From: Thermodesulfobacteriota bacterium
GTDB taxonomy: Bacteria; Desulfobacterota; Deferrimicrobia; Deferrimicrobiales; Deferrimicrobiaceae
DNA length: 60,388 nucleotides
Assembly: GCA_040758155.1 (NCBI GenBank)
Contig: JBFLWB010000140.1
Location: 1-60,388, forward strand
Reading direction: 5' to 3'
Shown: in pieces, positions 1 through 55,832 of the stretch
Numbering within the stretch: position 1 is the stretch's first letter
How the letters are laid out: every line of letters starts with the position of its first letter
Position numbers and translations under genes: made by a program
Notes under the pieces: model-generated
What the model was told of the DNA's origin: nothing
The model's input: only the letters and a program-made list of their open reading frames with translations
Databases searched by the model: none

Positions 1-455
1 GGTCCGCGCCGGGATACCTCGACGAACCGCGGCAGGAATTCAAGCGCCGCCTCGAGCCCTTCCCGGGCCGTATCGCTCATTCCTTCCCCGAAACGGTCGA
101 GGACCGCGGCGCGCATCCCCAGGAGATATCCCCTCGGCGCGGCGCCGAAGCAGGCGCGTGCGAGGTGAAGGACCTCGCAGGGATCGACGCCGTGCGTCGT
201 GAACCTTCCGGAGGCCCTCCCCTCGACCGGCCTCAGGTAGAACGGCTCTCCCGCGGAGCCGTCCGCGTCGGCGAACACCACGATGTCGTGCTCCGCGGCC
301 ATCGCTGCATGCTCGATCGAAAGCTGGTAGTCGCTCTCGACGGTGACGCCCGGCAGCCCCAGCGCCTCGAGCCGCTCCGCCAGGGCCGGCCCGAGCCCGT
401 CGTCCGCGCGGCCGGGATTGCCGTACCCGATGACCAGGATCCGCTCTCCGCTCAT
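1..455 (-). CDS. hoxW: [NiFe] hydrogenase maturation endopeptidase (HoxW/HycI family), 3' end runs off the window
   Basis: Absent from the ORF track because there is no stop inside the window. Reverse translation from ATG 455-453 gives MSGERILVIGYGNPGRADDGLGPALAERLEALGLPGVTVESDYQLSIEHAAMAAEHDIVVFADAD..., with the GNxxxxDDGxG start typical of hydrogenase endopeptidases. ATGA overlap with the hoxH stop at 452-455. Confidence 0.8.
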   Translation of the reverse strand, partial: MSGERILVIGYGNPGRADDGLGPALAERLEALGLPGVTVESDYQLSIEHAAMAAEHDIVVFADADGSAGEPFYLRPVEGRASGRFTTHGVDPCEVLHLARACFGAAPRGYLLGMRAAVLDRFGEGMSDTAREGLEAALEFLPRFVEVSRRG

Positions 456-1948
456 CCCTCTCCCGCGGCCCCCGCGTCGCGCACCATTTTCGCCATGACT
501 TCCCCCGAAGCATCGACCAGCTCGACGTCCAGCGGCATCTCCCCCACGGCGTGCGTCGCGCAGGAGAGGCAGGGATCGTAGGCGCGGATGGCCACCTCGA
601 TGCAGTTCAGCAGCTTCCCGGAGATCTCCTTCCGCCCGCTGAAATGGTCCTTGGCCACCTTCGTGACGGCGCGGTTCATCGGCTCGTTGTTATTGGTCGT
701 GGACACGATGAGGTTGCACATCGTCACCTCGTCGTTTCGGTTCACGCGGTAATGGTGAAAGAGAGTTCCCCGGGGCGCCTCGACGACGGCGACCGCCTCC
801 TCCCGGCGCGGCCCGGAGGCGAGCAGCTCCCTCCCCTGCAGGTCCGGATCCAGGAGCAGCTCCCGGATCTTCTCGATCGCGTGGAGCAGCTCGATCATCC
901 GGGCCCAATGGTAGCACATGGTGACGTTGTTCGCCCGGTCCTTGTGCAGCTCCCGGAACTCCCCGTGCGCGGCGTTCGCCTCTTCGGTGTCGATGAACGA
1001 CGCCGTGTTCAGGCGCGCCAGCGGCCCGACCCGGTACCAGCCGTATTCGGGGCCCAGCTCCTTCAGGAAGGGGAACTTCATGTACGACCAGGGGCGCACC
1101 TCCTCCATCAGCACGTCGAGGTACCTCTGGGGGTTCACGTCGACGAGGATCATGTTGCGGTCCTTGTCCACGGCGCGCAGCACCCCCTCGTACAGGTCGA
1201 GCGCCCCGTCGGACTCCCGCACCAGCGACAGGTGGTTTGAGTCGAACGAGCCGAAGGGCGCAAGCTCGTCGAGATGCTCCATGGTGAAGTCGCGCGCGAT
1301 GCCGACCGCCTCGCGCGCCCACGCCAGCATCCTGTCGGCGTCCTTGAGCAGATCGTCCCGCTCCGCGAGGGAGAGGTTCTTGTTCACGCCCCCGGGGACG
1401 GCGCCGGTGCCGTGGATCTTCTTCCCGGCCGTCCTCCGGATGATCTCCTGCCCGTACTTGCGCATCATCACGCCCTGGACCGCAAGGTCCGGGAACTTCG
1501 CGGCCACCGCGAGGATGTTGCGCTTTTCCGGAGGGGCGCCGAAGGCGCTCGCCGCCGTGCCGTCCGTGCCGAAAAGGAAATCCGGGGAGGCCAGGTGGAA
1601 GAAGTGCAGCGCGTGGCTCTGGAAAATCTGGCCGTAATGCATGAGCCGGCGCACCTTCTCCGCCGTGGGGGTGAGCCGCTCCCCCCCCACGATCCGGTCC
1701 ATGGCCTTGGCCGCCGCCAGGTGGTGGCTCACGGGGCAGATCCCGCACAGCCGCTGGACGATGACCGGCACTTCCCAGAACGGCCTTCCGAGGATGAACC
1801 GCTCGAAGCCGCGGAACTCGACGATGTGCAGGCGCGCGTGGTCCACCACGCCCGAATCGTCCATATGGATCGTCACCTTCCCGTGTCCCTCCACGCGGGT
1901 CACCGGAAGGATCGTGTACCGTTTCCCCTTGCCGCCGTCGGCCGTCAT
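452..1948 (-). CDS. hoxH: [NiFe] hydrogenase large (catalytic) subunit, NAD-reducing/bidirectional type
   Basis: 498 aa. RVEGHG and RLCGICPVSH (RxCGxCxxxH) near the N terminus. DPCLSCATH near the C terminus, followed by a ~30-aa tail of the kind cleaved by the endopeptidase. Confidence 0.93.
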   Translation of the reverse strand: MTADGGKGKRYTILPVTRVEGHGKVTIHMDDSGVVDHARLHIVEFRGFERFILGRPFWEVPVIVQRLCGICPVSHHLAAAKAMDRIVGGERLTPTAEKVRRLMHYGQIFQSHALHFFHLASPDFLFGTDGTAASAFGAPPEKRNILAVAAKFPDLAVQGVMMRKYGQEIIRRTAGKKIHGTGAVPGGVNKNLSLAERDDLLKDADRMLAWAREAVGIARDFTMEHLDELAPFGSFDSNHLSLVRESDGALDLYEGVLRAVDKDRNMILVDVNPQRYLDVLMEEVRPWSYMKFPFLKELGPEYGWYRVGPLARLNTASFIDTEEANAAHGEFRELHKDRANNVTMCYHWARMIELLHAIEKIRELLLDPDLQGRELLASGPRREEAVAVVEAPRGTLFHHYRVNRNDEVTMCNLIVSTTNNNEPMNRAVTKVAKDHFSGRKEISGKLLNCIEVAIRAYDPCLSCATHAVGEMPLDVELVDASGEVMAKMVRDAGAAGEG

Positions 1949-1960
1949 CGAAAAATCCTT

Positions 1961-2509
1961 CTAATCGTACTTGAGGTGCTCATAGACCGGCTCCGCGCTC
2001 CTGCCGGTCAGCAGGGCCGTCAGGGCGGCCCAGATGGCGTCCGCCGGCGGAGGGCAGCCCGGAATGAAGCGGTCGATCTTCACGACTTCGTGGCACGGAT
2101 AGACCCGGTTCAGCAGAAGGGGAATCTCCGGGTCGTTCGGCAGGACGTTCAGCGGGTTGTAGGTTCCCGGGCACTTCAGGTAGGCCTGCTCGAGGCACTC
2201 GCGCAGCGGGATGTTGTTCCGCATCGCGGGAACGCCCCCGTTGATCGCGCAGTCTCCGAGGGAGATCAGCACGTCGCACTGCTTCCGGAACTTCTCCAGC
2301 AGCTCGACGTTCTCCTCGTTGCAGCACCCCCCCTCCACGATGCCGACCGCGCAGCGGTCCCGGAACTCCTTGAAGTCGTTGATCGGGGAGCGGTCGAACT
2401 CGACCCTCGTCGCCAGCTCGAGGATCCGCTCGTCGATGTCGAGGACGGACATGTGGCAGCCGAAGCAGCCCGCCAGGCTGGCCGTCGCGATGCGCGGCTT
2501 GGGCGACAT
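1961..2509 (-). CDS. hoxY: [NiFe] hydrogenase small subunit, short group-3 type
   Basis: 182 aa. N-terminal ASLAGCFGCHMS and C-terminal GCPP cysteine motifs. Sits between hoxU and hoxH. Confidence 0.9.
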   Translation of the reverse strand: MSPKPRIATASLAGCFGCHMSVLDIDERILELATRVEFDRSPINDFKEFRDRCAVGIVEGGCCNEENVELLEKFRKQCDVLISLGDCAINGGVPAMRNNIPLRECLEQAYLKCPGTYNPLNVLPNDPEIPLLLNRVYPCHEVVKIDRFIPGCPPPADAIWAALTALLTGRSAEPVYEHLKYD

Positions 2510-2510
2510 C

Positions 2511-3215
2511 CTATTTGTCCTCCCTCGTCTCGATATCTTCGCCGATGGGCTGCCCGTCGTACCTCCGCTGCCCGACGGGCACCTCGTAGCCGACGCGCTT
2601 CCGCATCAGGGCGCCGACCGGGCAGACGGAGACCGCCTCGTCCGTTGCCTTGAGGTCGGTCTCCGACAGCGAATCGCCGTTGACCTGCAGCCGCTTCCTG
2701 GAGCCGCGCCCGACGAACTGGAACACGTTCTTCCGGTCCATGTCCTGGGAGGCCCGGACGCAGCGGCCGCACAGGATGCAGCGGTTGTGGTCGATGTAGA
2801 CGTCGGGATGCGAAAGGTCGATGTCGCGCTTCGGGTTGAGGTACCGGTACCTCGGCGCCGCGATGCCGAACCGGTAGGCCAGTGCCTGCAGCTCGCAGAA
2901 GCCGCTCTTCTCGCAGAACATGCAGAAATGGTTCCCCTCCACGAAAAGCATGTCGACGAGGTTCCGGCGGAACTCCTGCAGCTCGGGGGTCTCGCTCTCG
3001 ACGACCGCCCCCTCGGCGACGGTCTGCACGCAGGCGGCCTGGATGCGTCCGTTCACCCGGACCGAGCATACCCGGCAGCTCCCGTGGGGAGTGAGGTCCC
3101 GGTATGCGCACAGCCGCGGGATGAAGATCCCGGCCGCCTCCGCGGCCTTGAGGATCGTCTGGCCCCGGATCGCCTTGACCGTCTTCCCGTCGATCGTGAA
3201 CGTGACGCGGCTCAT
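2511..3215 (-). CDS. hoxU: Diaphorase iron-sulfur subunit (NuoG N-terminal-like, 2Fe-2S plus 4Fe-4S)
   Basis: 234 aa. Ferredoxin-like CAY...C..C...C, then HFCMFCEKSGFCELQ and CILCGRCVRAS...CPVGAL cluster motifs. Confidence 0.9.
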   Translation of the reverse strand: MSRVTFTIDGKTVKAIRGQTILKAAEAAGIFIPRLCAYRDLTPHGSCRVCSVRVNGRIQAACVQTVAEGAVVESETPELQEFRRNLVDMLFVEGNHFCMFCEKSGFCELQALAYRFGIAAPRYRYLNPKRDIDLSHPDVYIDHNRCILCGRCVRASQDMDRKNVFQFVGRGSRKRLQVNGDSLSETDLKATDEAVSVCPVGALMRKRVGYEVPVGQRRYDGQPIGEDIETREDK

Positions 3216-3230
3216 CGCTTCCTCCGGCGG

Positions 3231-5072
3231 TTAGACGTATTTCGACTGCCTGCCGACCCGCAGCTCGGCGTCGATGACCGCCTTGGACAGGTCGAACTCC
3301 GGGAGCAGTCCCGGCCTGCGCTCCGCGACGAACCCCGCCGAGAGGTCCCCGAAGATCTCCAGGGCCCCCAGCACGGGATTGGGGGCGGCCTGCCCGAGGC
3401 CGCAGCGGCTCGTGCGGATGATGAAGTTCGACAGGCTGCGCATCTCCGCCAGGTCCGCCGGGGCGCCGGCGCCCTCGATCACCTTGTGGACCAGATCCTT
3501 CAGGAGGATCAGCCCCACGCGGCACGGAGTGCAGTGGCCGCAGCTCTCCTCGATGAAGAAGTCGAGGTAATGCTCCGCGATCTCCAGCCTGTTGCGAGCG
3601 CGGTTGAAGACGACGATCGCCCCGCCCGTGGCGAGGTCGTCGTAGCAGATCCGCCCCTCCAGCCGGTCCGGCCCGATCATCTGCCGGCAGGGGCCGCCGA
3701 TCAGCAGGGTGCCCGTGTTTTCCGCCTCCGACATCTCGAGCAGCTCGGCGGGGGTGATGCCGAACGGCACTTCGTACACCCCGGGCTTCCGGCAGTCCCC
3801 GGAGATGCTCAGCACCTTCGTCCCGGTGGTCCGCGAGGACCCCATCGAGGCGAACCAGTCGCTCCCCTCGACCAGGATGCGGGATACGCAGCAGAGCGTC
3901 TCGACGTTGTTGACGATGGTGGGGCTGCCCAGGTATCCCTGCTGCGGCGGGAACGGCGGGCGGTTTTTCGGGTCGCCGCGGAACCCCTCGCAGGAGCTGA
4001 TCAGCGCGGTCTCCTCGCCGCAGATGTAGGCCCCGGCGCCGAGCTGGACCCGGATGTCGAAGTGGAACCCTTTCCTCCCGAGGATGTCCCGCCCGAGAAG
4101 CCCCTTCCGGCGACGCTCTTCGATCCTGCTTTCGAGGAACGCGAGGAGGTACCGGTACTCCCCCCGCAGGTAGACGATCCCCGTGTCGCTGCCGACCGCG
4201 TAGCCGGCGATCGCCATCCCCTCCAGAAGCTGGTCGGCGCACTCGGTCAGTAGGACGCGGTCCTTGAAGGTTCCCGGTTCCCCTTCGTCGGCGTTGCACA
4301 GGACGTAACGCCTCTCGCCGGGGGAACCGGCGGCCATCTCCCATTTCAGCCCGGCGGGGAAGCCCGCCCCTCCGCGCCCGCGCAGCCGCGAGTCCTTGAT
4401 CGCGCGGATCACCTCAGCGGGTGCGAGCGCCAACGCCTTCCGGAGACCGCTCCCGGGGTCGAACGGGGCGAAATGGACCGGCCCGCGCATCCGGATGTTG
4501 TTGCGGACCATCGACCGCACGAGCGGATGCTCGTTGTTGCCGTCCCCGACCATCGTGACGAGCTGCTGCGGATCGAGGTGCTTCCTCAGGTCGCGGATGA
4601 GCTGCCGCCCCCGTTCGGGTGTCAGGTGCGTCACCACCACCCCGTTGATCAGCGCGGCGGGCGCCTGGTCGCTCATGCCGATGCAGGGGGTGTGGGTCAG
4701 GGTGATGGCGCCGTCCGGCGTCGTCTCCCCCATCGTGACGCCGAGCTCCCTGGACATCGCCTCCGCGACGGCCTCGTACCCCTTCATCCAGTCCACGATG
4801 TCGCGGCAGAGGCGGATGACGACCTTCCCCTGCGGCTTCACCGACAGGAAGGAATAAAACGACACGAGGCTTTCCACTTCCACCCGGTGCGACCCGACCG
4901 CGCGGGCGATCTCCTCCATGGCTTCGTGCGAAACGCACCCGAACCTTTCCTGCACCGCGATGGCGATGTCCATCAGGCGGGAGCGGTCGTTTCCGAACTT
5001 CCTGCAGATTTCGGCGGTTACACTCGCCGTTCCCCGTTTCAATCGTGCCTCCCCGGCCCTCCCGTTTCGCAT
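3231..5072 (-). CDS. hoxF: Diaphorase NAD(H)/FMN-binding subunit (NuoE-like domain fused to NuoF-like domain)
   Basis: 613 aa. GRGGAGFPAGLKW (FMN/NADH site) and ESCGHCTPCRVG (4Fe-4S). N-terminal thioredoxin-like NuoE-type domain. An alternative start is TTG at 5042, which has a strong GGGGAGG SD 5 nt upstream; ATG 5072 has no SD. Confidence 0.9.
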   Translation of the reverse strand: MRNGRAGEARLKRGTASVTAEICRKFGNDRSRLMDIAIAVQERFGCVSHEAMEEIARAVGSHRVEVESLVSFYSFLSVKPQGKVVIRLCRDIVDWMKGYEAVAEAMSRELGVTMGETTPDGAITLTHTPCIGMSDQAPAALINGVVVTHLTPERGRQLIRDLRKHLDPQQLVTMVGDGNNEHPLVRSMVRNNIRMRGPVHFAPFDPGSGLRKALALAPAEVIRAIKDSRLRGRGGAGFPAGLKWEMAAGSPGERRYVLCNADEGEPGTFKDRVLLTECADQLLEGMAIAGYAVGSDTGIVYLRGEYRYLLAFLESRIEERRRKGLLGRDILGRKGFHFDIRVQLGAGAYICGEETALISSCEGFRGDPKNRPPFPPQQGYLGSPTIVNNVETLCCVSRILVEGSDWFASMGSSRTTGTKVLSISGDCRKPGVYEVPFGITPAELLEMSEAENTGTLLIGGPCRQMIGPDRLEGRICYDDLATGGAIVVFNRARNRLEIAEHYLDFFIEESCGHCTPCRVGLILLKDLVHKVIEGAGAPADLAEMRSLSNFIIRTSRCGLGQAAPNPVLGALEIFGDLSAGFVAERRPGLLPEFDLSKAVIDAELRVGRQSKYV

Positions 5073-5227: not shown

Positions 5228-6670
5228 ATGATCGCGTGGACTGCGGATAGGGCCAACCGCCAACCTCCCGAAATTCCTTCATTGTTCCGGTTGCTGCAGG
5301 ACCTTCGCCGGACAGGGAGGGAATCTTCGGAGGGATGGTCGGGCCGGATGCGGGCCCGTCTCGAGGAAACGGTACGCCACGCGAGGCTCCGATCGCCCTT
5401 CTACCGCGGGAAATACGCCTCCCTCCCGCGGGAGATCCGGGACATCGGGATTCTCCCTTCCGTCTCCAAACGGGAGTTGATGGAGAATTTCGACGCCTGG
5501 GCGACCGATCCCGCGGTTCGAAGGGAAACGGCGGACGCGTTCGTCGCCGATCCCTCCCGCATCGGGCAGCTCTACCTGGACCGTTACGTCGCTTTCTCTT
5601 CTTCCGGAACGACCGGTTCCCCCGTCATCCTGCTGCAGGACTCCGCGGCGATGACGGTCTACCAGGCGCTCTTCCTGGAGCGCCGCATCCCGTCACTGCT
5701 CTCCGCCCGGGACCTTTTTCCGCTTCTCAAGTGCCACGTGCGCATCGCGACGATCATCGCGACGGGGGGCCATTTCGCCAGCTCGGTGGTCGACGCCCGC
5801 GCCCGTGTCCATTGGCCGCGGCTGTACGGGCGCAACCGCACGTTTTCCCTGATGTCGCCCATGCCGGAGCTGGTGGACGCCCTGAACGATTACCGGCCGG
5901 CCGTCGTGGGGACCTATCCCACGGCGCTGGCCGTCCTTGCGGAGGAGCAGGCGGCGGGACGGCTGCGGATCCGCCCCGCCCTGCTGCTCTCGGGCGCCGA
6001 GCGGCTCTCCCGACCGCTCGCCGAGCGGATCTCCGCCGCGTTCCGCTGCCCCGTGCGCGACACCTACGCCGCTTCGGAATTCATGGGCATCGCGTTCGAC
6101 TGCCGGCTCGGTCGCATGCACGTCAACGCCGACTGGGTGGTCCTCGAGCCCGTGGACGCGGAGGGGCGGCCGTCCCTCCCGGGAGAGCCCTCCCGCACGA
6201 CGCTCCTCACGAACCTTGCCAACCGGCTCCAGCCGCTCATCCGGTACGACCTCGGCGACAGCGTCACGACGATGCCGGAAAGGTGCCCCTGCGGCAGCCC
6301 GCTTCCCGTCGTCCGGCCCGAGGGGCGGCGCGACGAAACGCTGCGCGTGGAACGGGAGGACGGCACGAGCGTGCCGCTGCTCCCCCTGGTGCTGGCTACG
6401 GTGATCGAGGAAACGACGGGGCTTTCGAGGTACCAGCTCCTCCAGGCGGGGCCGAGCGCGCTTCGGCTGCGCTTCGAGGAAGCGCCGGGGCTGGACCGCG
6501 CGCAGGTCGGAGCGGAGGCGGAGCGCCGTCTCCGGGCCTACCTGTCCTCCGTGGGGGTCGGCGCGGTATCGATCGAGCGGTCGGAGGAGCGGCCGCAGGT
6601 CAATCCGTCGGGGGGAAAGACCCGCTCGTTCCTCGTCGAGCGATCTTCAACATCTTCTCGGTCGCCTTGA
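5228..6670 (+). CDS. PaaK / coenzyme F390 synthetase-like adenylate-forming enzyme, substrate unknown
   Basis: ORF 5201-6670. SSGTTGSP AMP-binding loop, C-terminal SGGKTR lysine motif, and overall PaaK-family layout. Start placed at ATG 5228 because GGGAGGAAGG (5213-5222) precedes it, whereas ATG 5201 is embedded in a TATAAT box. Confidence 0.75.
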   Translation: MIAWTADRANRQPPEIPSLFRLLQDLRRTGRESSEGWSGRMRARLEETVRHARLRSPFYRGKYASLPREIRDIGILPSVSKRELMENFDAWATDPAVRRETADAFVADPSRIGQLYLDRYVAFSSSGTTGSPVILLQDSAAMTVYQALFLERRIPSLLSARDLFPLLKCHVRIATIIATGGHFASSVVDARARVHWPRLYGRNRTFSLMSPMPELVDALNDYRPAVVGTYPTALAVLAEEQAAGRLRIRPALLLSGAERLSRPLAERISAAFRCPVRDTYAASEFMGIAFDCRLGRMHVNADWVVLEPVDAEGRPSLPGEPSRTTLLTNLANRLQPLIRYDLGDSVTTMPERCPCGSPLPVVRPEGRRDETLRVEREDGTSVPLLPLVLATVIEETTGLSRYQLLQAGPSALRLRFEEAPGLDRAQVGAEAERRLRAYLSSVGVGAVSIERSEERPQVNPSGGKTRSFLVERSSTSSRSP

Positions 6671-7831: not shown

Positions 7832-7906
7832 TGGAGCGGGCGACGAGATTTGAACTCGCGACTTCGACCTTGGCAAGGTCGCACTCTACCGCTGAGTTAC
7901 GCCCGC
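7832..7906 (-). tRNA. tRNA-Gly (anticodon GCC), CCA encoded
   Basis: Minus strand reads GCGGGCGTAACTCAGCGGTAGAGTGCGACCTTGCCAAGGTCGAAGTCGCGAGTTCAAATCTCGTCGCCCGCTCCA. It folds by hand into a cloverleaf: 7-bp acceptor, anticodon loop TTGCCAA, GTTCAAATC T-loop, discriminator U. Confidence 0.95.
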
Positions 7907-29498: not shown

Positions 29499-30416
29499 TC
29501 AGGGGAGGAAGCTCCCCCGGTACTCCTTCACGCCGCGGATCCCCTCCCGGGCCAGGAAATCGCGGATCCCCTCGACGATCTCGATGCACGCGTTCGGGTT
29601 GCGGAAATTGGCCGTCCCGACCTGTACCGCGGCCGCCCCGACGAGGAGGAACTCGAGCGCGTCCTCCGCGCTCCGGATCCCGCCGATCCCGATCACGGGG
29701 ATCTTCACCGCCTTGCACGCCTCCCACACCATCCGCAGCGCCACCGGCTTGATCGCCGGCCCCGAAAGCCCCCCCGTCACGTTGCCCAGCCGCGGCCGCC
29801 GCGTCCGCGGATCGACCGCCATCCCCAGCAGCGTGTTGACGAGGGAGACCGCGTCTGCGCCCGAGTCCTCCGCCGCGCGGGCCATCTCCCCGATGTCGGT
29901 GACGTTCGGGGACAGCTTCACCCAGAGCGGCTTCGCGGTGGCCGCGCGGACCCTCCGGGTCAGCCCGTACAGCCCTTTCGCGGTGGAGCCGAACGCGATG
30001 CCGCCTTCCCTCACGTTGGGGCAGGAGACGTTCAGCTCGACCGCGGCCAGGGCGGGAACCGCGGACAGCCGCCGCGCGACCTCCTCGTATTCCTCCTCCG
30101 TCCGCCCGTAGATGTTCGCCACGAAGACGGCCCCCGCGTCCTCCAGCCGGGGGGCGACTTCGCCGATGAACCTCTCCACCCCGATGTTCTGCAGGCCGAT
30201 GGCGTTCAGCATCCCCGCCGGAGTCTCCACGATCCGCTGCGGCGCGTTCCCCCGCGTCGGGAGGAGGGAGAGCCCCTTCACGATCACCGCGCCGAGGCGG
30301 GAGATGTCGTAGAACGGCGCGAATTCCAGCCCGTATCCGAACGTCCCCGAAGCGCTCATCACGGGATTCTTCAGGAGCAGGCTCCCCACCCGCGCGGTCA
30401 GGTCCGGGGTCACCAT
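29499..30416 (-). CDS. pyrD: Dihydroorotate dehydrogenase B, catalytic subunit
   Basis: 3' part of track ORF 29499-31094, starting at MVTPDLTARVGSLLLKNPVMSASGTFG. NVSCPN and GGLSGPAIKP motifs. 7-nt overlap with the pyrK stop. Confidence 0.93.
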   Translation of the reverse strand: MVTPDLTARVGSLLLKNPVMSASGTFGYGLEFAPFYDISRLGAVIVKGLSLLPTRGNAPQRIVETPAGMLNAIGLQNIGVERFIGEVAPRLEDAGAVFVANIYGRTEEEYEEVARRLSAVPALAAVELNVSCPNVREGGIAFGSTAKGLYGLTRRVRAATAKPLWVKLSPNVTDIGEMARAAEDSGADAVSLVNTLLGMAVDPRTRRPRLGNVTGGLSGPAIKPVALRMVWEACKAVKIPVIGIGGIRSAEDALEFLLVGAAAVQVGTANFRNPNACIEIVEGIRDFLAREGIRGVKEYRGSFLP

Positions 30417-31225
30417 ACGACCTCCCGGGCATCGAACACCGGCCCCTCCTTGCAGACGCGCCGATAGGCGGTCCCGTCCCCTTCCCGCACCTCGGTCACG
30501 CATCCCCAGCAGACGCCGAACCCGCAGGCCATATGGTTCTCGAGCGACACCTGCGCGGGAACGCCCCGGGAGCCGGCCGTCTCCGCGATCTCCCGGAGCA
30601 TCTCCCTCGGGCCGCACGCAAGGATCGACAGCCGCCCGGCCTCGGGGGGCTTCAGGGCCTCGAGGCGGGCGCGGAGCGCGGCGCCCACCGTCCCGTGGAA
30701 GCCGGCGGTCCCGTCGTCGGTGCACAGGTGCACCCTGCCGGGCACGTTCCCCCCCGGGGTCCAATCCCGCGGGGGAAGCTGTTCGCGGGTCCGCGCGCCG
30801 AGGAACATCTCGAAATCGCTCCGTCCCTGCGAGAGGGCCATCCCGGCGGGGAACACCGTGGAGAAGCCGACACCGCCCCCCGCGAGCCACCAGGTCCGGT
30901 CGGGATCGTCGAGCCGGAAGCCGTTCCCCAGCGGCAGGGTGATGGACAGGGGGTCGCCCTCGTGCAGGCCGGACAGCAGCGCCGTGCCGCGCCCGACCAC
31001 CTTGTAGACGAACTCGACCGTTCCTGACACCCGGGTCCCTCCCGACCGGAAGATCGCGAGCGGCCTCGGGAGGAGCGGGTCGTTCCCGGGCCACCCCGAT
31101 ACCATGGCGAACTGTCCGGGCACGAACTCGACCCGGTCGGGGACCGCCACCTCCATCCGGTAGAAGATTCCGTGCCCCACGTTCCGCAGGATCCTGCCGC
31201 CGACGAACCGCGGATTAGCTCGCAT
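30410..31225 (-). CDS. pyrK: Dihydroorotate dehydrogenase B, electron-transfer subunit
   Basis: 271 aa. PGQFAMV, LPRPLAI, and C-terminal 2Fe-2S cysteines MACGFGVCWGC...C. The start codon lies inside the repeat element (see findings). Confidence 0.88.
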   Translation of the reverse strand: MRANPRFVGGRILRNVGHGIFYRMEVAVPDRVEFVPGQFAMVSGWPGNDPLLPRPLAIFRSGGTRVSGTVEFVYKVVGRGTALLSGLHEGDPLSITLPLGNGFRLDDPDRTWWLAGGGVGFSTVFPAGMALSQGRSDFEMFLGARTREQLPPRDWTPGGNVPGRVHLCTDDGTAGFHGTVGAALRARLEALKPPEAGRLSILACGPREMLREIAETAGSRGVPAQVSLENHMACGFGVCWGCVTEVREGDGTAYRRVCKEGPVFDAREVVW

Positions 31226-31527
31226 TTCTCACCAGCCTCCTACTGCGGCGGCGGATACGGGCACACCTACTGCGTTGTGCCCCTCCCGCCGGGAACGGCA
31301 TGATGGTGCCGGCGTCCGGGGGTACCCCAGGGAGCGTTTCTTGCCCGGGAGTGGGGCGCTCGGTCGGGCTCCTCGACGCACTGTCAAGTGCGCCTCCGGG
31401 GCCCTCGGTCGCGACGCCTTGTAGTGCTGCCAGGATGGCAGCATGCCGCGGAGGCCATGGATGGCCGGGAGCGGCCCACGCCCGTCTCCACCGCCTCGCT
31501 ACGGACGCTGGTGAGAAATGCGAGCTA
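31216..31527. repeat. Copy 1 of a 257/302-nt hairpin-rich element with terminal inverted repeats (candidate structured ncRNA or MITE)
   Basis: Core is 31221-31522. Termini are CGCATTTCTCACCAGC and GCTGGTGAGAAATGCG, extended by TAGCT/AGCTA. Near-identical to 54662-54918 except for a 45-nt insertion (31367-31411) and a few point differences. Confidence 0.85.
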
Positions 31528-31965
31528 TGTGGCATCCCTGTCCCGTATCTCCCGGGAGAGCAGCAGCGCGTCCTCCCCCGTGTCGGTGTAGTACCCTCTC
31601 CGGATCCCCTGGAACGCGAAGCCCAGCCGCCCGTAAAGCCGCTGCGCCTCCTCGTTCCCGGCCCGGACTTCGAGGTGGATCCGTTCCGATCCCGCCAGGG
31701 CCCCCCTGCGGATGCACTCCCGGACCAGGGCTTCCCCCACCCCCTGTCCCCGGAAATGCGGGTGCACCGCGATATTCAGGAGATGGGACTCGCCGGCGAC
31801 GTTCCAGCAGACGGCGTAGCCGAGGATCTCCCCCGGGGCCCCCTCCGCGACGAACGGCCGGGAGAAGGGACGGTCGATGTCCTCGGCGAACATCCCGCGG
31901 GACCAGGGCGTCGGGAAGGAGGCCTCCTCGATCGCCATCACCCCGTCGAGGTCGCAGGGGGCCAT
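31525..31965 (-). CDS. rimI: Ribosomal-protein-alanine N-acetyltransferase (GNAT)
   Basis: 146 aa. IEEASFPTPW and the acetyl-CoA motif RGQGVGEAL typical of RimI. Confidence 0.85.
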   Translation of the reverse strand: MAPCDLDGVMAIEEASFPTPWSRGMFAEDIDRPFSRPFVAEGAPGEILGYAVCWNVAGESHLLNIAVHPHFRGQGVGEALVRECIRRGALAGSERIHLEVRAGNEEAQRLYGRLGFAFQGIRRGYYTDTGEDALLLSREIRDRDAT

Positions 31966-54045: not shown

Positions 54046-54591
54046 TCAAGGGACCTCGAAAAATGAGACGCGGGTGTCTCCGTATCGTTTCTCGGAAACC
54101 CGGATCCATCCGCCCGGCGCCGGCGCCGCCTCCCTGGCGGCGCTTTCCGCGACCACGATCGCGCCGGGGTCGAGGATCCCCGCCCGGCGGATCTCCTCCC
54201 CCGCCCGCTCGAGCAGCCCCTTTCCGTAAGGGGGGTCGAGGAACACGAGGGAGAACTTCTCCCCCCCGGCCGCCAGCCTCCGCAGCGCCTTCCGGTAATC
54301 CATGGAAAGGCATGCCGCCTGCGGGGCGCCGACGGCAGCGAGGTTCGCCTTCACCGCTTCGACCGCCGGGGGGAACGATTCCACCAGCACGGCGGTTGCG
54401 GCCCCCCGGGAGAGCGCCTCGATGGCCATGGCGCCCGTCCCGGCGAACAGGTCCAGCACCCTCGACCCGACGACCCGCTCGCCCAGGACCGAGAAGACCG
54501 CCTCGCGCACCCGGTCGGTCGTCGGCCGGACCGCCATCCCGCGCGGCGCGCGCAGCGTCCTTCCCTTCCACCTTCCGGCGACGACCCGCAA
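54046..54591 (-). CDS. rsmD: 16S rRNA (guanine966-N2)-methyltransferase
   Basis: 181 aa. RPTTDRVREAVF, DLFAGTGA and FLDPPY motifs. TTG start. Confidence 0.88.
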   Translation of the reverse strand: MRVVAGRWKGRTLRAPRGMAVRPTTDRVREAVFSVLGERVVGSRVLDLFAGTGAMAIEALSRGAATAVLVESFPPAVEAVKANLAAVGAPQAACLSMDYRKALRRLAAGGEKFSLVFLDPPYGKGLLERAGEEIRRAGILDPGAIVVAESAAREAAPAPGGWIRVSEKRYGDTRVSFFEVP

Positions 54592-54658
54592 ATCCGCCCC
54601 GAACGCATCGTTTTCGGCTCATTATTGGGATTTCGGCGGCGGTCGTCAAGGCGTCCCT

Positions 54659-54921
54659 GCCCGCATTTCTCACCAGCCTCCTGCTGCGGCGGCGGATACG
54701 GGCACACCTACTGCGTTGTGCCCCTCCCGCCGGGAACGGCATGATGGTGCCGGCGTCCGGGGGTACCCCAGGGAGCGTTTCTTTCCCGGGAGTGGGGCGC
54801 TCGGTCGCGACGCCTTGTAGTGCCGCCAAGGAGGGCGGTATGCCGCGGAGGCCAGGATGGCCGGGAGCGACCCACGCCCGTCTCCACCGCCTCGCTACGG
54901 ACGCTGGTGAGAAATGCGGGC
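54659..54921. repeat. Copy 2 of the 257/302-nt hairpin-rich element with terminal inverted repeats
   Basis: Core is 54662-54918, with the same 16-nt termini as copy 1, extended by GCC/GGC. Same orientation as copy 1. Lacks the 45-nt insertion. Confidence 0.85.
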
Positions 54922-54950
54922 CGGCGACTCCTCCGCGGCCGCGTGCTACA

Positions 54951-55832
54951 ATGGCCCGGAAATCCGGCGATCCGTCCGAGGAGCTGTTGGCCGAAATCAC
55001 CGCGTTGCGCGTCGGGTGCATCCCCTACGCGAACCTCATACCCATCTTCCACGCGCTGCAGGGCTCCCGCGCCGCGGGCGAAGCCCTGTTCGTGGACGGC
55101 CACCCTTCCGAGCTGAACCTCCTGATGCGGGCGGGCGGCCTGGATCTCTCTCCGAACTCCTCCATCGAGTACGCCGTGCGCCCCGACCTGTACATCCTCT
55201 GCCCCGGGATCTCCGTCGCTTCGCGCACCCGCGTGATGAGCGTCCTCCTCCTCTCGAACGGGCCGCTCCGGCAGCTCCCTCCGGACCCGATCGCGGTGAC
55301 GGGCGCGTCCGCCACTTCGGTAGCCCTTCTCGAGATCCTGCTGGGCGAATCGCTCGGGCGCAGGAACGCCCTCGTGACCACGTCCCTTCCGCCTGCGGAA
55401 GCGCTGCGCTCCCACCCGGCGTATCTCGCCATCGGCGACGAGGCCATCCGCGCGGCCGTCGAAGGGACCGCGCCGCACGTCACCGACATGGGGGAATGGT
55501 GGACGCGGGAAACCGGGAAGCCGTTCGTCTTCTCCCTGTGGATCGCCTCCCGCGCGGCGTGGGAAGGGCAGGCAAGGGAACCGCTTTCCCGGTTCGCCGC
55601 GGCGCTGATCGACGCCAAGCGGTCCGTCCAGGAATCGATCCGCCGCGGGGAATACCCGTGGGGCGGCCCCGGATGGATCCCCGCGAAGTTCCGGGAGGAT
55701 TACTGGCGCTGCCTCTCCTACGATCTCGACGAGGAAACGGAGGGGCTCTCCCTCTTCTTCCGGCTGGCGGCGAAGTACGGGAGGATTCCCTTCGCCCCGT
55801 CCCTCCGGTTCCTTGAGCCCGGCCCGGCATAA
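54951..55832 (+). CDS. mqnA: Chorismate dehydratase (futalosine-pathway menaquinone biosynthesis)
   Basis: 3' part of track ORF 54063-55832, starting at MARKSGDPSEELLAEITALRVGCIPYANLIP. MqnA-like LRVGxIPYxNxxP and SSIEY motifs (periplasmic-binding-protein-like fold family). Confidence 0.83.
   Translation: MARKSGDPSEELLAEITALRVGCIPYANLIPIFHALQGSRAAGEALFVDGHPSELNLLMRAGGLDLSPNSSIEYAVRPDLYILCPGISVASRTRVMSVLLLSNGPLRQLPPDPIAVTGASATSVALLEILLGESLGRRNALVTTSLPPAEALRSHPAYLAIGDEAIRAAVEGTAPHVTDMGEWWTRETGKPFVFSLWIASRAAWEGQAREPLSRFAAALIDAKRSVQESIRRGEYPWGGPGWIPAKFREDYWRCLSYDLDEETEGLSLFFRLAAKYGRIPFAPSLRFLEPGPA

Follow-up and report, generated by a model that had tools for sequence, protein, structure and literature searches.

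A 172-nt palindromic element of several bacterial phyla, very probably a miniature transposon, with two long copies in a Deferrimicrobiaceae contig

Bacterial transposable elements of the miniature inverted-repeat kind (MITEs) are 100–200 bp long, carry terminal inverted repeats (TIRs) and TA flanks, and give long stem-loop transcripts (Delihas, PMC2229807). We have analysed a hairpin-rich sequence that occurs twice in the 60,388-nt contig JBFLWB010000140.1 (assembly GCA_040758155.1) of a Thermodesulfobacteriota bacterium of the Deferrimicrobiaceae; this whole stretch of DNA is referred to as the window. Both sequences are very probably copies of a non-autonomous DNA transposon of the MITE kind, whose standard form is an imperfect palindrome of 172 nt and whose mobilisation would be of the IS630/Tc1-mariner type. 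The element is not a novel class of RNA but an ordinary kind of element, from a family that appears undescribed: searches of the literature for the terminus (in full text) and for MITEs in these taxa yielded no description.

Elements of the IS630/Tc1-mariner type take TA as their target, which becomes duplicated on insertion (PMC2170065), and references cited in that paper ascribe to IS630 a preference for CTAG-like sites. The eukaryotic Stowaway-type MITEs of Tc1/mariner and the IS630 family (e.g. ISY100) resemble the present family in the TA target, in the 2-bp TA duplication and in the CTAG-like preference. The closest mechanistic analogue is RUP of the pneumococcus, a small non-coding element with TIRs and TA flanks that reaches high copy numbers and is transcribed into a stem-loop, and for which mobilisation in trans by IS630-Spn1 has been proposed (PMC2229807). 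RUP differs in that it measures 107 bp, is restricted to Streptococcus and has a parent insertion sequence (IS) with matching TIRs; it has no sequence similarity to the present family, which extends over several phyla. The Correia elements (NEMIS) of Neisseria come closest in TIR length and in the creation of signals: they are ~105–155 bp long with TIRs of 24–26 bp, duplicate TA, form a long stem-loop when co-transcribed, and their parent transposase has likewise not been identified (PMC2229807). They are, however, confined to one genus. Whereas Correia ends create promoter elements for the neighbouring genes and carry an IHF site, the ends of the present family offer a purine that completes a stop codon and an outward Shine-Dalgarno-like motif with an ATG. 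The ERIC (IRU) sequences of enterobacteria are also alike, being imperfect palindromes of ~127 bp with TA termini that are co-transcribed and whose hairpin RNA affects mRNA stability (PMC2229807). Their TIRs, in contrast, are contiguous over only 7 bp, they are found only in Enterobacteriaceae and Vibrio, and they too have no sequence similarity to our element. Neither blastn of the plasmid collection nor Rfam revealed similarity to Correia, ERIC or RUP, and the host taxa are not the same; what these families share with ours is their kind and no more. For the placement of the element described below, the precedent is the mycobacterial MIRUs, which Supply et al. reportedly found in 1997 to be tolerated at operon junctions, with ends that overlap the flanking stop and start codons and with translational coupling preserved. 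MIRUs are, however, tandem direct repeats of 46–101 bp with small open reading frames (ORFs), and not TIR-bounded palindromes with target duplications.

Two copies of the element and their insertion at TA

Copy 1 (308 nt) lies at 31218–31525 and copy 2 (263 nt) at 54659–54921; features are on the plus strand unless stated otherwise. MAFFT alignment and a repeat finder place the two 23.4 kb from each other with a common orientation, and the extent of copy 1 was defined by alignment with copy 2 and with members of the wider family. Copy 1 consists of the 172-nt family core and two inserted modules, A and B. Copy 2 retains both modules and lacks the apex segment and the TA flanks. An earlier note on the window had reported this repeat with about seven substitutions, two single-nucleotide indels and one 45-nt indel; within the extents that it gave to the copies, MAFFT returned exactly this count. 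No further copy was detected in the window by BLAST with all family members or by searching for the terminus.

The 16-nt terminus CGCATTTCTCACCAGC has four occurrences in the window, each of them at an element end, and allowing up to three mismatches adds none. It was present on average 0.5 times in shuffled sequence, and none of 100 shuffles contained four occurrences. The same note had correctly seen this inverted repeat closing both copies; its full length is greater by 3 nt at either side (copy 1, GCT...AGC; copy 2, GCC...GGC). Nineteen terminal nucleotides are thus perfectly paired in each copy, at 31218–31236 (GCTCGCATTTCTCACCAGC) and 31507–31525 (GCTGGTGAGAAATGCGAGC) in copy 1 and at 54659–54677 and 54903–54921 in copy 2. 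The outermost difference between the copies is a compensatory pair, T-A against C-G. Copy 1 is bordered by a TA on either side (31216–31217 and 31526–31527), a target-site duplication where the relatives have a single TA (ATGCCTCATAGAAAT). The span of 31216–31527 initially assigned to this copy corresponds to the element plus both flanking TAs. In the window the dinucleotide TA is scarce, with 647 occurrences against 1562 expected.

The wider family was searched with the exact 20-mer terminus (CGCATTTCTCACCAGCSTCC) against one genome per prokaryotic species. This search matched 89 stretches, about five of which look like chance. Most of the remaining matches are paired ends of the form RCCCGCATTTCTCACC...GGTGAGAAATGCGGGY, and they define 56 distinct insertions, of which 35 measure 172–173 nt (main class, 170–174 nt). 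TA is found on both sides of 33 of these insertions and on at least one side of 49. Beyond the TA, the left side has Y and the right side in most cases G; these bases are often non-complementary, and are therefore part of the target rather than of the element. Insertion is at TA, usually within Y-TA-G, and the TA is duplicated. A 4-bp YTAR duplication of the IS5 type was also considered and rejected, because in about half of the 33 insertions with TA flanks the tetramer on the left differs from that on the right and the end bases of the element are complementary.

Comparison with relatives revealed the corresponding empty sites. The gene order fabH-GNAT-pyrK-pyrD-rimP-nusA is kept in these relatives, and the closest homologues of pyrK (76–86% identity) start with MPHRNPRF or similar, where the protein of the window starts with MRANPRF. 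At the empty site (loci L090–L094), GNAT and pyrK overlap by 11 nt (ATGCCTCATAG) within ...ATGCCTCATAGAAATCCG..., whereas the minus strand of the window reads ...ATGCCACA-TA-(308-nt element)-TA-ATCCGCGG.... By this alignment, copy 1 occupies the TA that is common to the GNAT stop codon and to codons 3/4 of pyrK. Copy 2 is likewise absent from the orthologous rsmD-mqnA spacer of one relative (L107) and from the region upstream of mqnA in another (L108). Taken together, the TA duplications and the empty sites indicate that the element is mobile DNA. The further properties expected of a MITE were also found: a length below ~600 bp, no coding capacity, TIRs, the TA duplication (copy 1) and dispersed copies.

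The 45-nt indel, a multiple of three, and the compensating single-nucleotide indels had raised the question of a protein-coding interior. This reading was ruled out by the absence of periodicity in GC content at the third codon position (GC3): the GC content by codon phase is 0.66/0.73/0.70 and 0.69/0.66/0.71 inside the elements, against ~0.9 at the third position of the flanking genes. The interior is therefore non-coding and its ORFs are artefacts, as had been supposed from the start.

Gene junctions entered by the element

Copy 1 is located inside the operon fabH-GNAT-pyrK-pyrD, as mapped by GC3 and Pfam. Upstream of it, on the minus strand, lies a GNAT acetyltransferase gene (31525–31965; Pfam Acetyltransf_1), and downstream pyrK (30410–31225, minus strand), which encodes the electron-transfer subunit of dihydroorotate dehydrogenase and was identified by Pfam (DHODB_Fe-S_bind), homologues and GC3. 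Comparison with the relatives shows that the GNAT stop has been rebuilt from TA and the terminal G of the element; on the minus strand, the right-hand TA and this base read TAG (31527–31525). At the other end, the first three codons of pyrK have been replaced by ATG-CGA-GCT of the element. No in-frame start of pyrK now precedes this ATG (31223–31225, minus strand; MRA-NPRF...), as supported by the GC3 of the ORF, the N-termini of the homologues and the alignment of the junction. The ATG is preceded 2 nt upstream by GGTGAG and 10 nt upstream by an element-borne AGGAGG (31236–31241, minus strand), which would resemble a Shine-Dalgarno sequence in function as it does in sequence. The ancestral start, ATG CCA CA(T), corresponding to MPH of the homologues, is stranded at 31533–31535 (minus strand), with the element lying between it and the remainder of pyrK. 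Given the N-termini of the homologues, and because the next in-frame start would cost conserved residues, donation of the start codon is the only consistent reading for copy 1. From the sequence, then, pyrK opens within the element and half of the GNAT stop belongs to it, and the element seems to supply both signals. A mechanically called ORF at 31215–31535 runs through the whole of copy 1 from the stranded pyrK ATG; it is spurious.

Copy 2 lies between divergent genes, rsmD (54046–54591, minus strand) and mqnA of the futalosine pathway of menaquinone biosynthesis (54951–55832, start codon approximate), both identified by GC3 and Pfam. A promoter-like TTGACG-17-AATAAT for rsmD is located at 54649–54621 (minus strand), just outside the copy, and an extended −10-like TGcTACAAT at 54944–54952, upstream of mqnA. 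Both motifs are kept in the two relatives with an empty site, which shows that copy 2 sits between two back-to-back promoters, where it has no obvious role. The contexts of the two copies had been described as unrelated and intergenic. This holds for the functions of the neighbours and not for an arbitrary placement, copy 1 being set exactly on a stop/start junction.

The fit to gene ends was then evaluated over the family. Among 125 distinct element ends, 28 abut a GC3-supported ORF whose stop is formed by TA and the terminal R, while the other two frames gave 4 and 3. As the TA sites of such genomes are concentrated in stop codons, target availability, the survival of harmless insertions, or both may account for this association. 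Read outward, either end gives AGGAGG (or GGAG)-N10-ATG-CGG-GCT-A, and in six elements, copy 1 included, a gene ends at one end and a co-directional gene starts at the element ATG at the other. A gene that enters the element from either side meets a TAG or TAA stop, made of the duplicated TA and the terminal purine, and each end bears an outward AGGAGG/GGTGAG followed by ATG, which could serve a downstream gene. In the operon mRNA, the whole element would loop out as a rod, bringing the upstream stop and the new start into one terminal helix in which the AUG pairs with element bases 6–8, 5 nt downstream of the stop. Ribosomes that terminate there could open this helix and expose the start, and translational coupling could thereby be preserved.

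A 172-nt rod and its spread across phyla

Complete copies with two ends were found in metagenome-assembled genomes (MAGs) labelled Deltaproteobacteria/Candidatus Deferrimicrobiaceae, Nitrospirota/Nitrospirales, Pirellulales, Terriglobales and Thermoanaerobaculales (Acidobacteriota), and Gammaproteobacteria. A metagenome scan with the left arm added 12 stretches, all of them MITEs. The window copies are the longest seen in the family; their core is of the type found at L007, L021 and L042, and they belong to the Deferrimicrobiaceae-like 'Deltaproteobacteria' subfamily. One contig of a Deltaproteobacteria MAG (L052) carries three 172-nt copies within 8 kb, in mixed orientation (1966–2143, 4503–4680 and 6127–6302).

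Other forms of the family are TIR-only derivatives of 45–98 nt and forms of 196, 224, 237 and 252 nt with nested inserts. Derivatives of 45–73 nt reduced to the termini were seen at L004, L019, L031, L024, L038, L050, L053, L058, L075 and L081; those at L024 and L050/L053 lie exactly between the stop of one gene and the in-frame ATG of the next. In a Pirellulales copy (L062, 2832–3074), a 65-nt nested insert forms a near-perfect hairpin (AGCCTGGGGACAGAACG...CGTTCTGTCCCCAGGCT), a second case in which the rod has gained a hairpin module. A repeat of ~200 nt in an alphaproteobacterial MAG (L060, 6951–7142; L083, 4888–5089) has the same terminus at one end and a strongly diverged second end (GGTCGGTGAGGGATCTCATG).

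The fold is one unbranched rod in all 172-nt representatives (ΔG of −91 to −121 kcal/mol), and in the window both strands of both copies fold far more stably than shuffled sequence (z of −6.2 to −7.5). Covariation was analysed on 39 sequences, the members of 170–174 nt (176–180 nt with the three extra terminal bases per side). RNAalifold predicted 37 pairs, of which 22 show compensatory changes. Paired cells amounted to 94.4%, against 33–51% if the partners were slid by 1–3 columns, and cells with a double change to 210 against 8–42 in these slid controls; the observed covariation score was not reached in any of 500 shuffles. The covariation check that the earlier note had called for thus supports the long hairpin. 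Between lineages the interiors are nearly unalignable, while length and rod shape are kept.

The branched appearance of the window copies comes from the two modules. Module A (79 nt, 31278–31356; 54719–54797 in copy 2) is made of branched GC-rich hairpins, is otherwise found only at L003 and is missing from the 172-nt members. Module B (51–52 nt, 31425–31475; 54821–54871 in copy 2) comprises two hairpins and is otherwise found only at L040 and L043; its first hairpin changes in a compensatory way, from GCTGCC/GGCAGC in copy 1 to GCCGCC/GGCGGT in copy 2. Neither module was found as a stand-alone sequence outside the elements. The small hairpins previously listed for the interior are all present in the sequence, so that the description as a chain of GC-rich hairpins is correct for the window; as a design of the family it fails, these hairpins being two lineage-specific inserts in a simple 172-nt rod. 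The rod itself ends in an apex hairpin (CGCACU-GUCA-AGUGCG, 31377–31392) whose stem co-varies across lineages. This apex is included in the 45 nt that copy 2 lacks (31359–31403, the exact placement being ambiguous within direct repeats of 14 nt). These repeats, GGGGCGCTCGGTCG at 31353–31366 and GGGGCCCTCGGTCG at 31398–31411, are identical at 13 of 14 positions and border the indel, which indicates a repeat-mediated deletion in copy 2 with loss of the rod apex.

Is the rod maintained as an RNA? Mismatches between the arms are G·T in 211 cases and A·C in 225, and the end that abuts an upstream stop is the left one in 13 cases and the right one in 14. The absence of bias in both counts argues against selection on one RNA strand, and strand-specific RNA selection was rejected as leaving no signal in either. 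A DNA palindrome or a passive hairpin fits better than a strand-specific RNA. The pairing may persist through a protein-binding sequence in both arms, through a hairpin or cruciform that aids transposition, or through the survival of insertions that fold harmlessly either way.

Identity, mobilisation and meaning

The earlier note had left open whether the sequence is a structured RNA or a MITE. The MITE part of this proposal is borne out by the TIRs, the TA duplication, the many copies, the empty sites and the deletion and nested derivatives. A free-standing RNA gene, or a mobile functional RNA, with the copies as paralogous RNA genes, is by comparison very unlikely. It would agree with the very stable folds on both strands, the strong covariation of the long helix across lineages, the two compensatory changes between the window copies and the near-constant length across phyla, and it would be new: at gathering and permissive thresholds, Rfam matched only one tRNA in the window (7835–7906, minus strand), the best E-value for copy 1 was 3.2, and 14 loci with 172-nt members gave no match, in keeping with the failure to recognise a known RNA family at first sight. 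However, selection on one strand should have left an excess of G·U, and G·T and A·C mismatches are balanced; the orientation relative to the abutted stop is random; and neither a promoter-like nor a terminator-like site was found in the element. Furthermore, the TA duplications and empty sites denote DNA transposition, the conserved apex is lost in copy 2, many TIR-only derivatives persist, and the branched hairpins are unconserved lineage-specific inserts.

Slightly less credible still is a doublet hairpin of repetitive extragenic palindromic (REP) sequences, or REPIN, moved as single-stranded DNA by a RAYT, an IS200-like HUH tyrosine transposase. With its long hairpin, symmetric but imperfect, conserved at the ends and variable inside, and with its high copy number and mostly intergenic position, the element has the appearance of a REPIN, and compensatory upkeep of the hairpin would suit a single-stranded intermediate. 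Single-strand transposition by HUH enzymes produces no target duplication, however, whereas TA is duplicated at the filled sites and single at the empty site. The 172 nt also far exceed REPs of 20–40 bp, and no RAYT gene was found by the Pfam scan of the window ORFs. REP super-families are defined by a GTAG or CGTC tag (PMC3733652), and the termini here (RCCCGCATTTC) have neither. To a host cis-regulatory module (leader, attenuator or mRNA-stabilising hairpin) duplicated in the genome we attach the least probability of all. Copy 1, being inside an operon, must share a transcript with pyrK-pyrD, copy 2 occupies a divergent promoter region, and an influence on mRNA stability is known for MITEs such as ERIC and Correia (PMC2229807). 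Against this, the neighbours are functionally unrelated (pyrimidine synthesis on one side, rRNA methylation and menaquinone synthesis on the other), syntenic relatives lack the element, the same element stands beside hundreds of unrelated genes in several phyla, and it contains no U-tract terminator. A regulatory effect, if there is one, would be incidental to the insertion and not the origin of the element.

A non-autonomous transposon would be moved in trans by a DDE transposase binding termini of ~20–30 bp, and the signature of the insertions, at TA and with duplication of TA, suggests that it is of the IS630/Tc1-mariner type. The window was said at the outset to be devoid of a transposase, and we found none among ~40 GC3-supported ORFs scanned with Pfam, a few stretches lying outside the scan. 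The direct target duplications proposed at that time as the mark of an ordinary MITE are present at many copies; the transposase-bearing IS with identical termini proposed along with them was not encountered in the loci searched. Matches to a single end were contig-end truncations, chance 20-mers, solo ends or diverged variants of ~120–200 nt, with no IS among them. Relaxed TIR pairs 600–3500 nt apart consisted of neighbouring MITEs and of one 1256-nt pair at L022 that encloses gcvH and folD and no transposase. The plasmid collection gave by blastn only chance matches of 32 nt in Ralstonia, and a scan of viral contigs mostly chance matches of 15 nt, together with one repeat.

This repeat is found in two contigs of IMG/VR sample 3300049216 (L144, 1–125; L146, 1–125 and 4670–4768), with the terminus CTAG|CCCGCATTTCTCACC at three contig ends. 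Its interior of at least 121 nt is non-palindromic, and it is within this repeat that the contigs are broken off. The repeat disrupts the terminase gene of a prophage and the gene that follows the one for the capsid; these prophage genes are intact in L149. A second scan and the neighbouring phage proteins allowed no extension of the repeat, which may be an autonomous IS relative of the MITE.

Several observations weigh against the transposon interpretation or parts of it. The TA duplication is the single character that would place the transposase, and with it the family, in IS630/Tc1-mariner, and an autonomous IS with these TIRs was absent from the 89 genome loci, the 12 metagenome loci, the plasmid collection and the window. 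Because members were retrieved with an exact 20-mer, the invariance of the terminus partly reflects the retrieval. The near-constancy of the 172 nt from phylum to phylum exceeds the constraint that an element decaying as purely selfish DNA would need. At the site of copy 1, 3 nt (one Arg codon) are missing relative to the relatives, so the reconstruction is not base-perfect, and copy 2 has no TA flanks, its empty-site junction being ambiguous through GGGC microhomology. As to the signals at the ends, an outward ATG shares the frame of a coding ORF at 15 ends, where the one other open frame gives 9, a weak excess, and the ATG and the Shine-Dalgarno-like motif are both buried in a long helix.

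A bolder extension of the transposon interpretation is that the family is a cross-phylum, 'junction-compatible' mobile hairpin with translationally transparent ends and RNA-level selection on the length and the compensatory pairing of the 172-nt rod. A stop would be rebuilt at one end by the terminal purine, the Shine-Dalgarno-like motif and ATG of the other end would lie in the same helix, and a ribosome terminating there would unzip the rod and re-initiate on the next gene; the element would be a portable translational-coupling and insulating cassette that can rewire operon junctions, as at GNAT-pyrK. We regard this extension as unlikely, though as less so than the rival explanations above.

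Elsewhere in the window, at 452–5072 on the minus strand, genes for a NiFe-hydrogenase large subunit-like protein, an Oxidored_q6 small subunit, a 2Fe-2S/4Fe-4S NuoG-like protein and a NuoF/NuoE-fusion-like protein form a cluster that looks like a soluble NAD-linked hydrogenase module.

The analysis corrects the local annotation, in which the start of pyrK falls inside a mobile element and half of the GNAT stop is made of it. As many matches lie at contig ends, the element breaks assemblies, and it can mislead gene callers through long spurious ORFs. The family is spread over at least five phylum-level groups of uncultured bacteria of soil, groundwater and wastewater, and offers a marker of the horizontal exchange of a transposase among distant phyla. 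Its interest lies in this cross-phylum spread, in the precise fit to stop/start junctions and in the clean natural experiment offered by GNAT-pyrK. If the transparency to stop and start signals is true, the family would clearly exemplify how a transposon has adapted to the TA sites of GC-rich genomes, which are rare and mostly stop codons.

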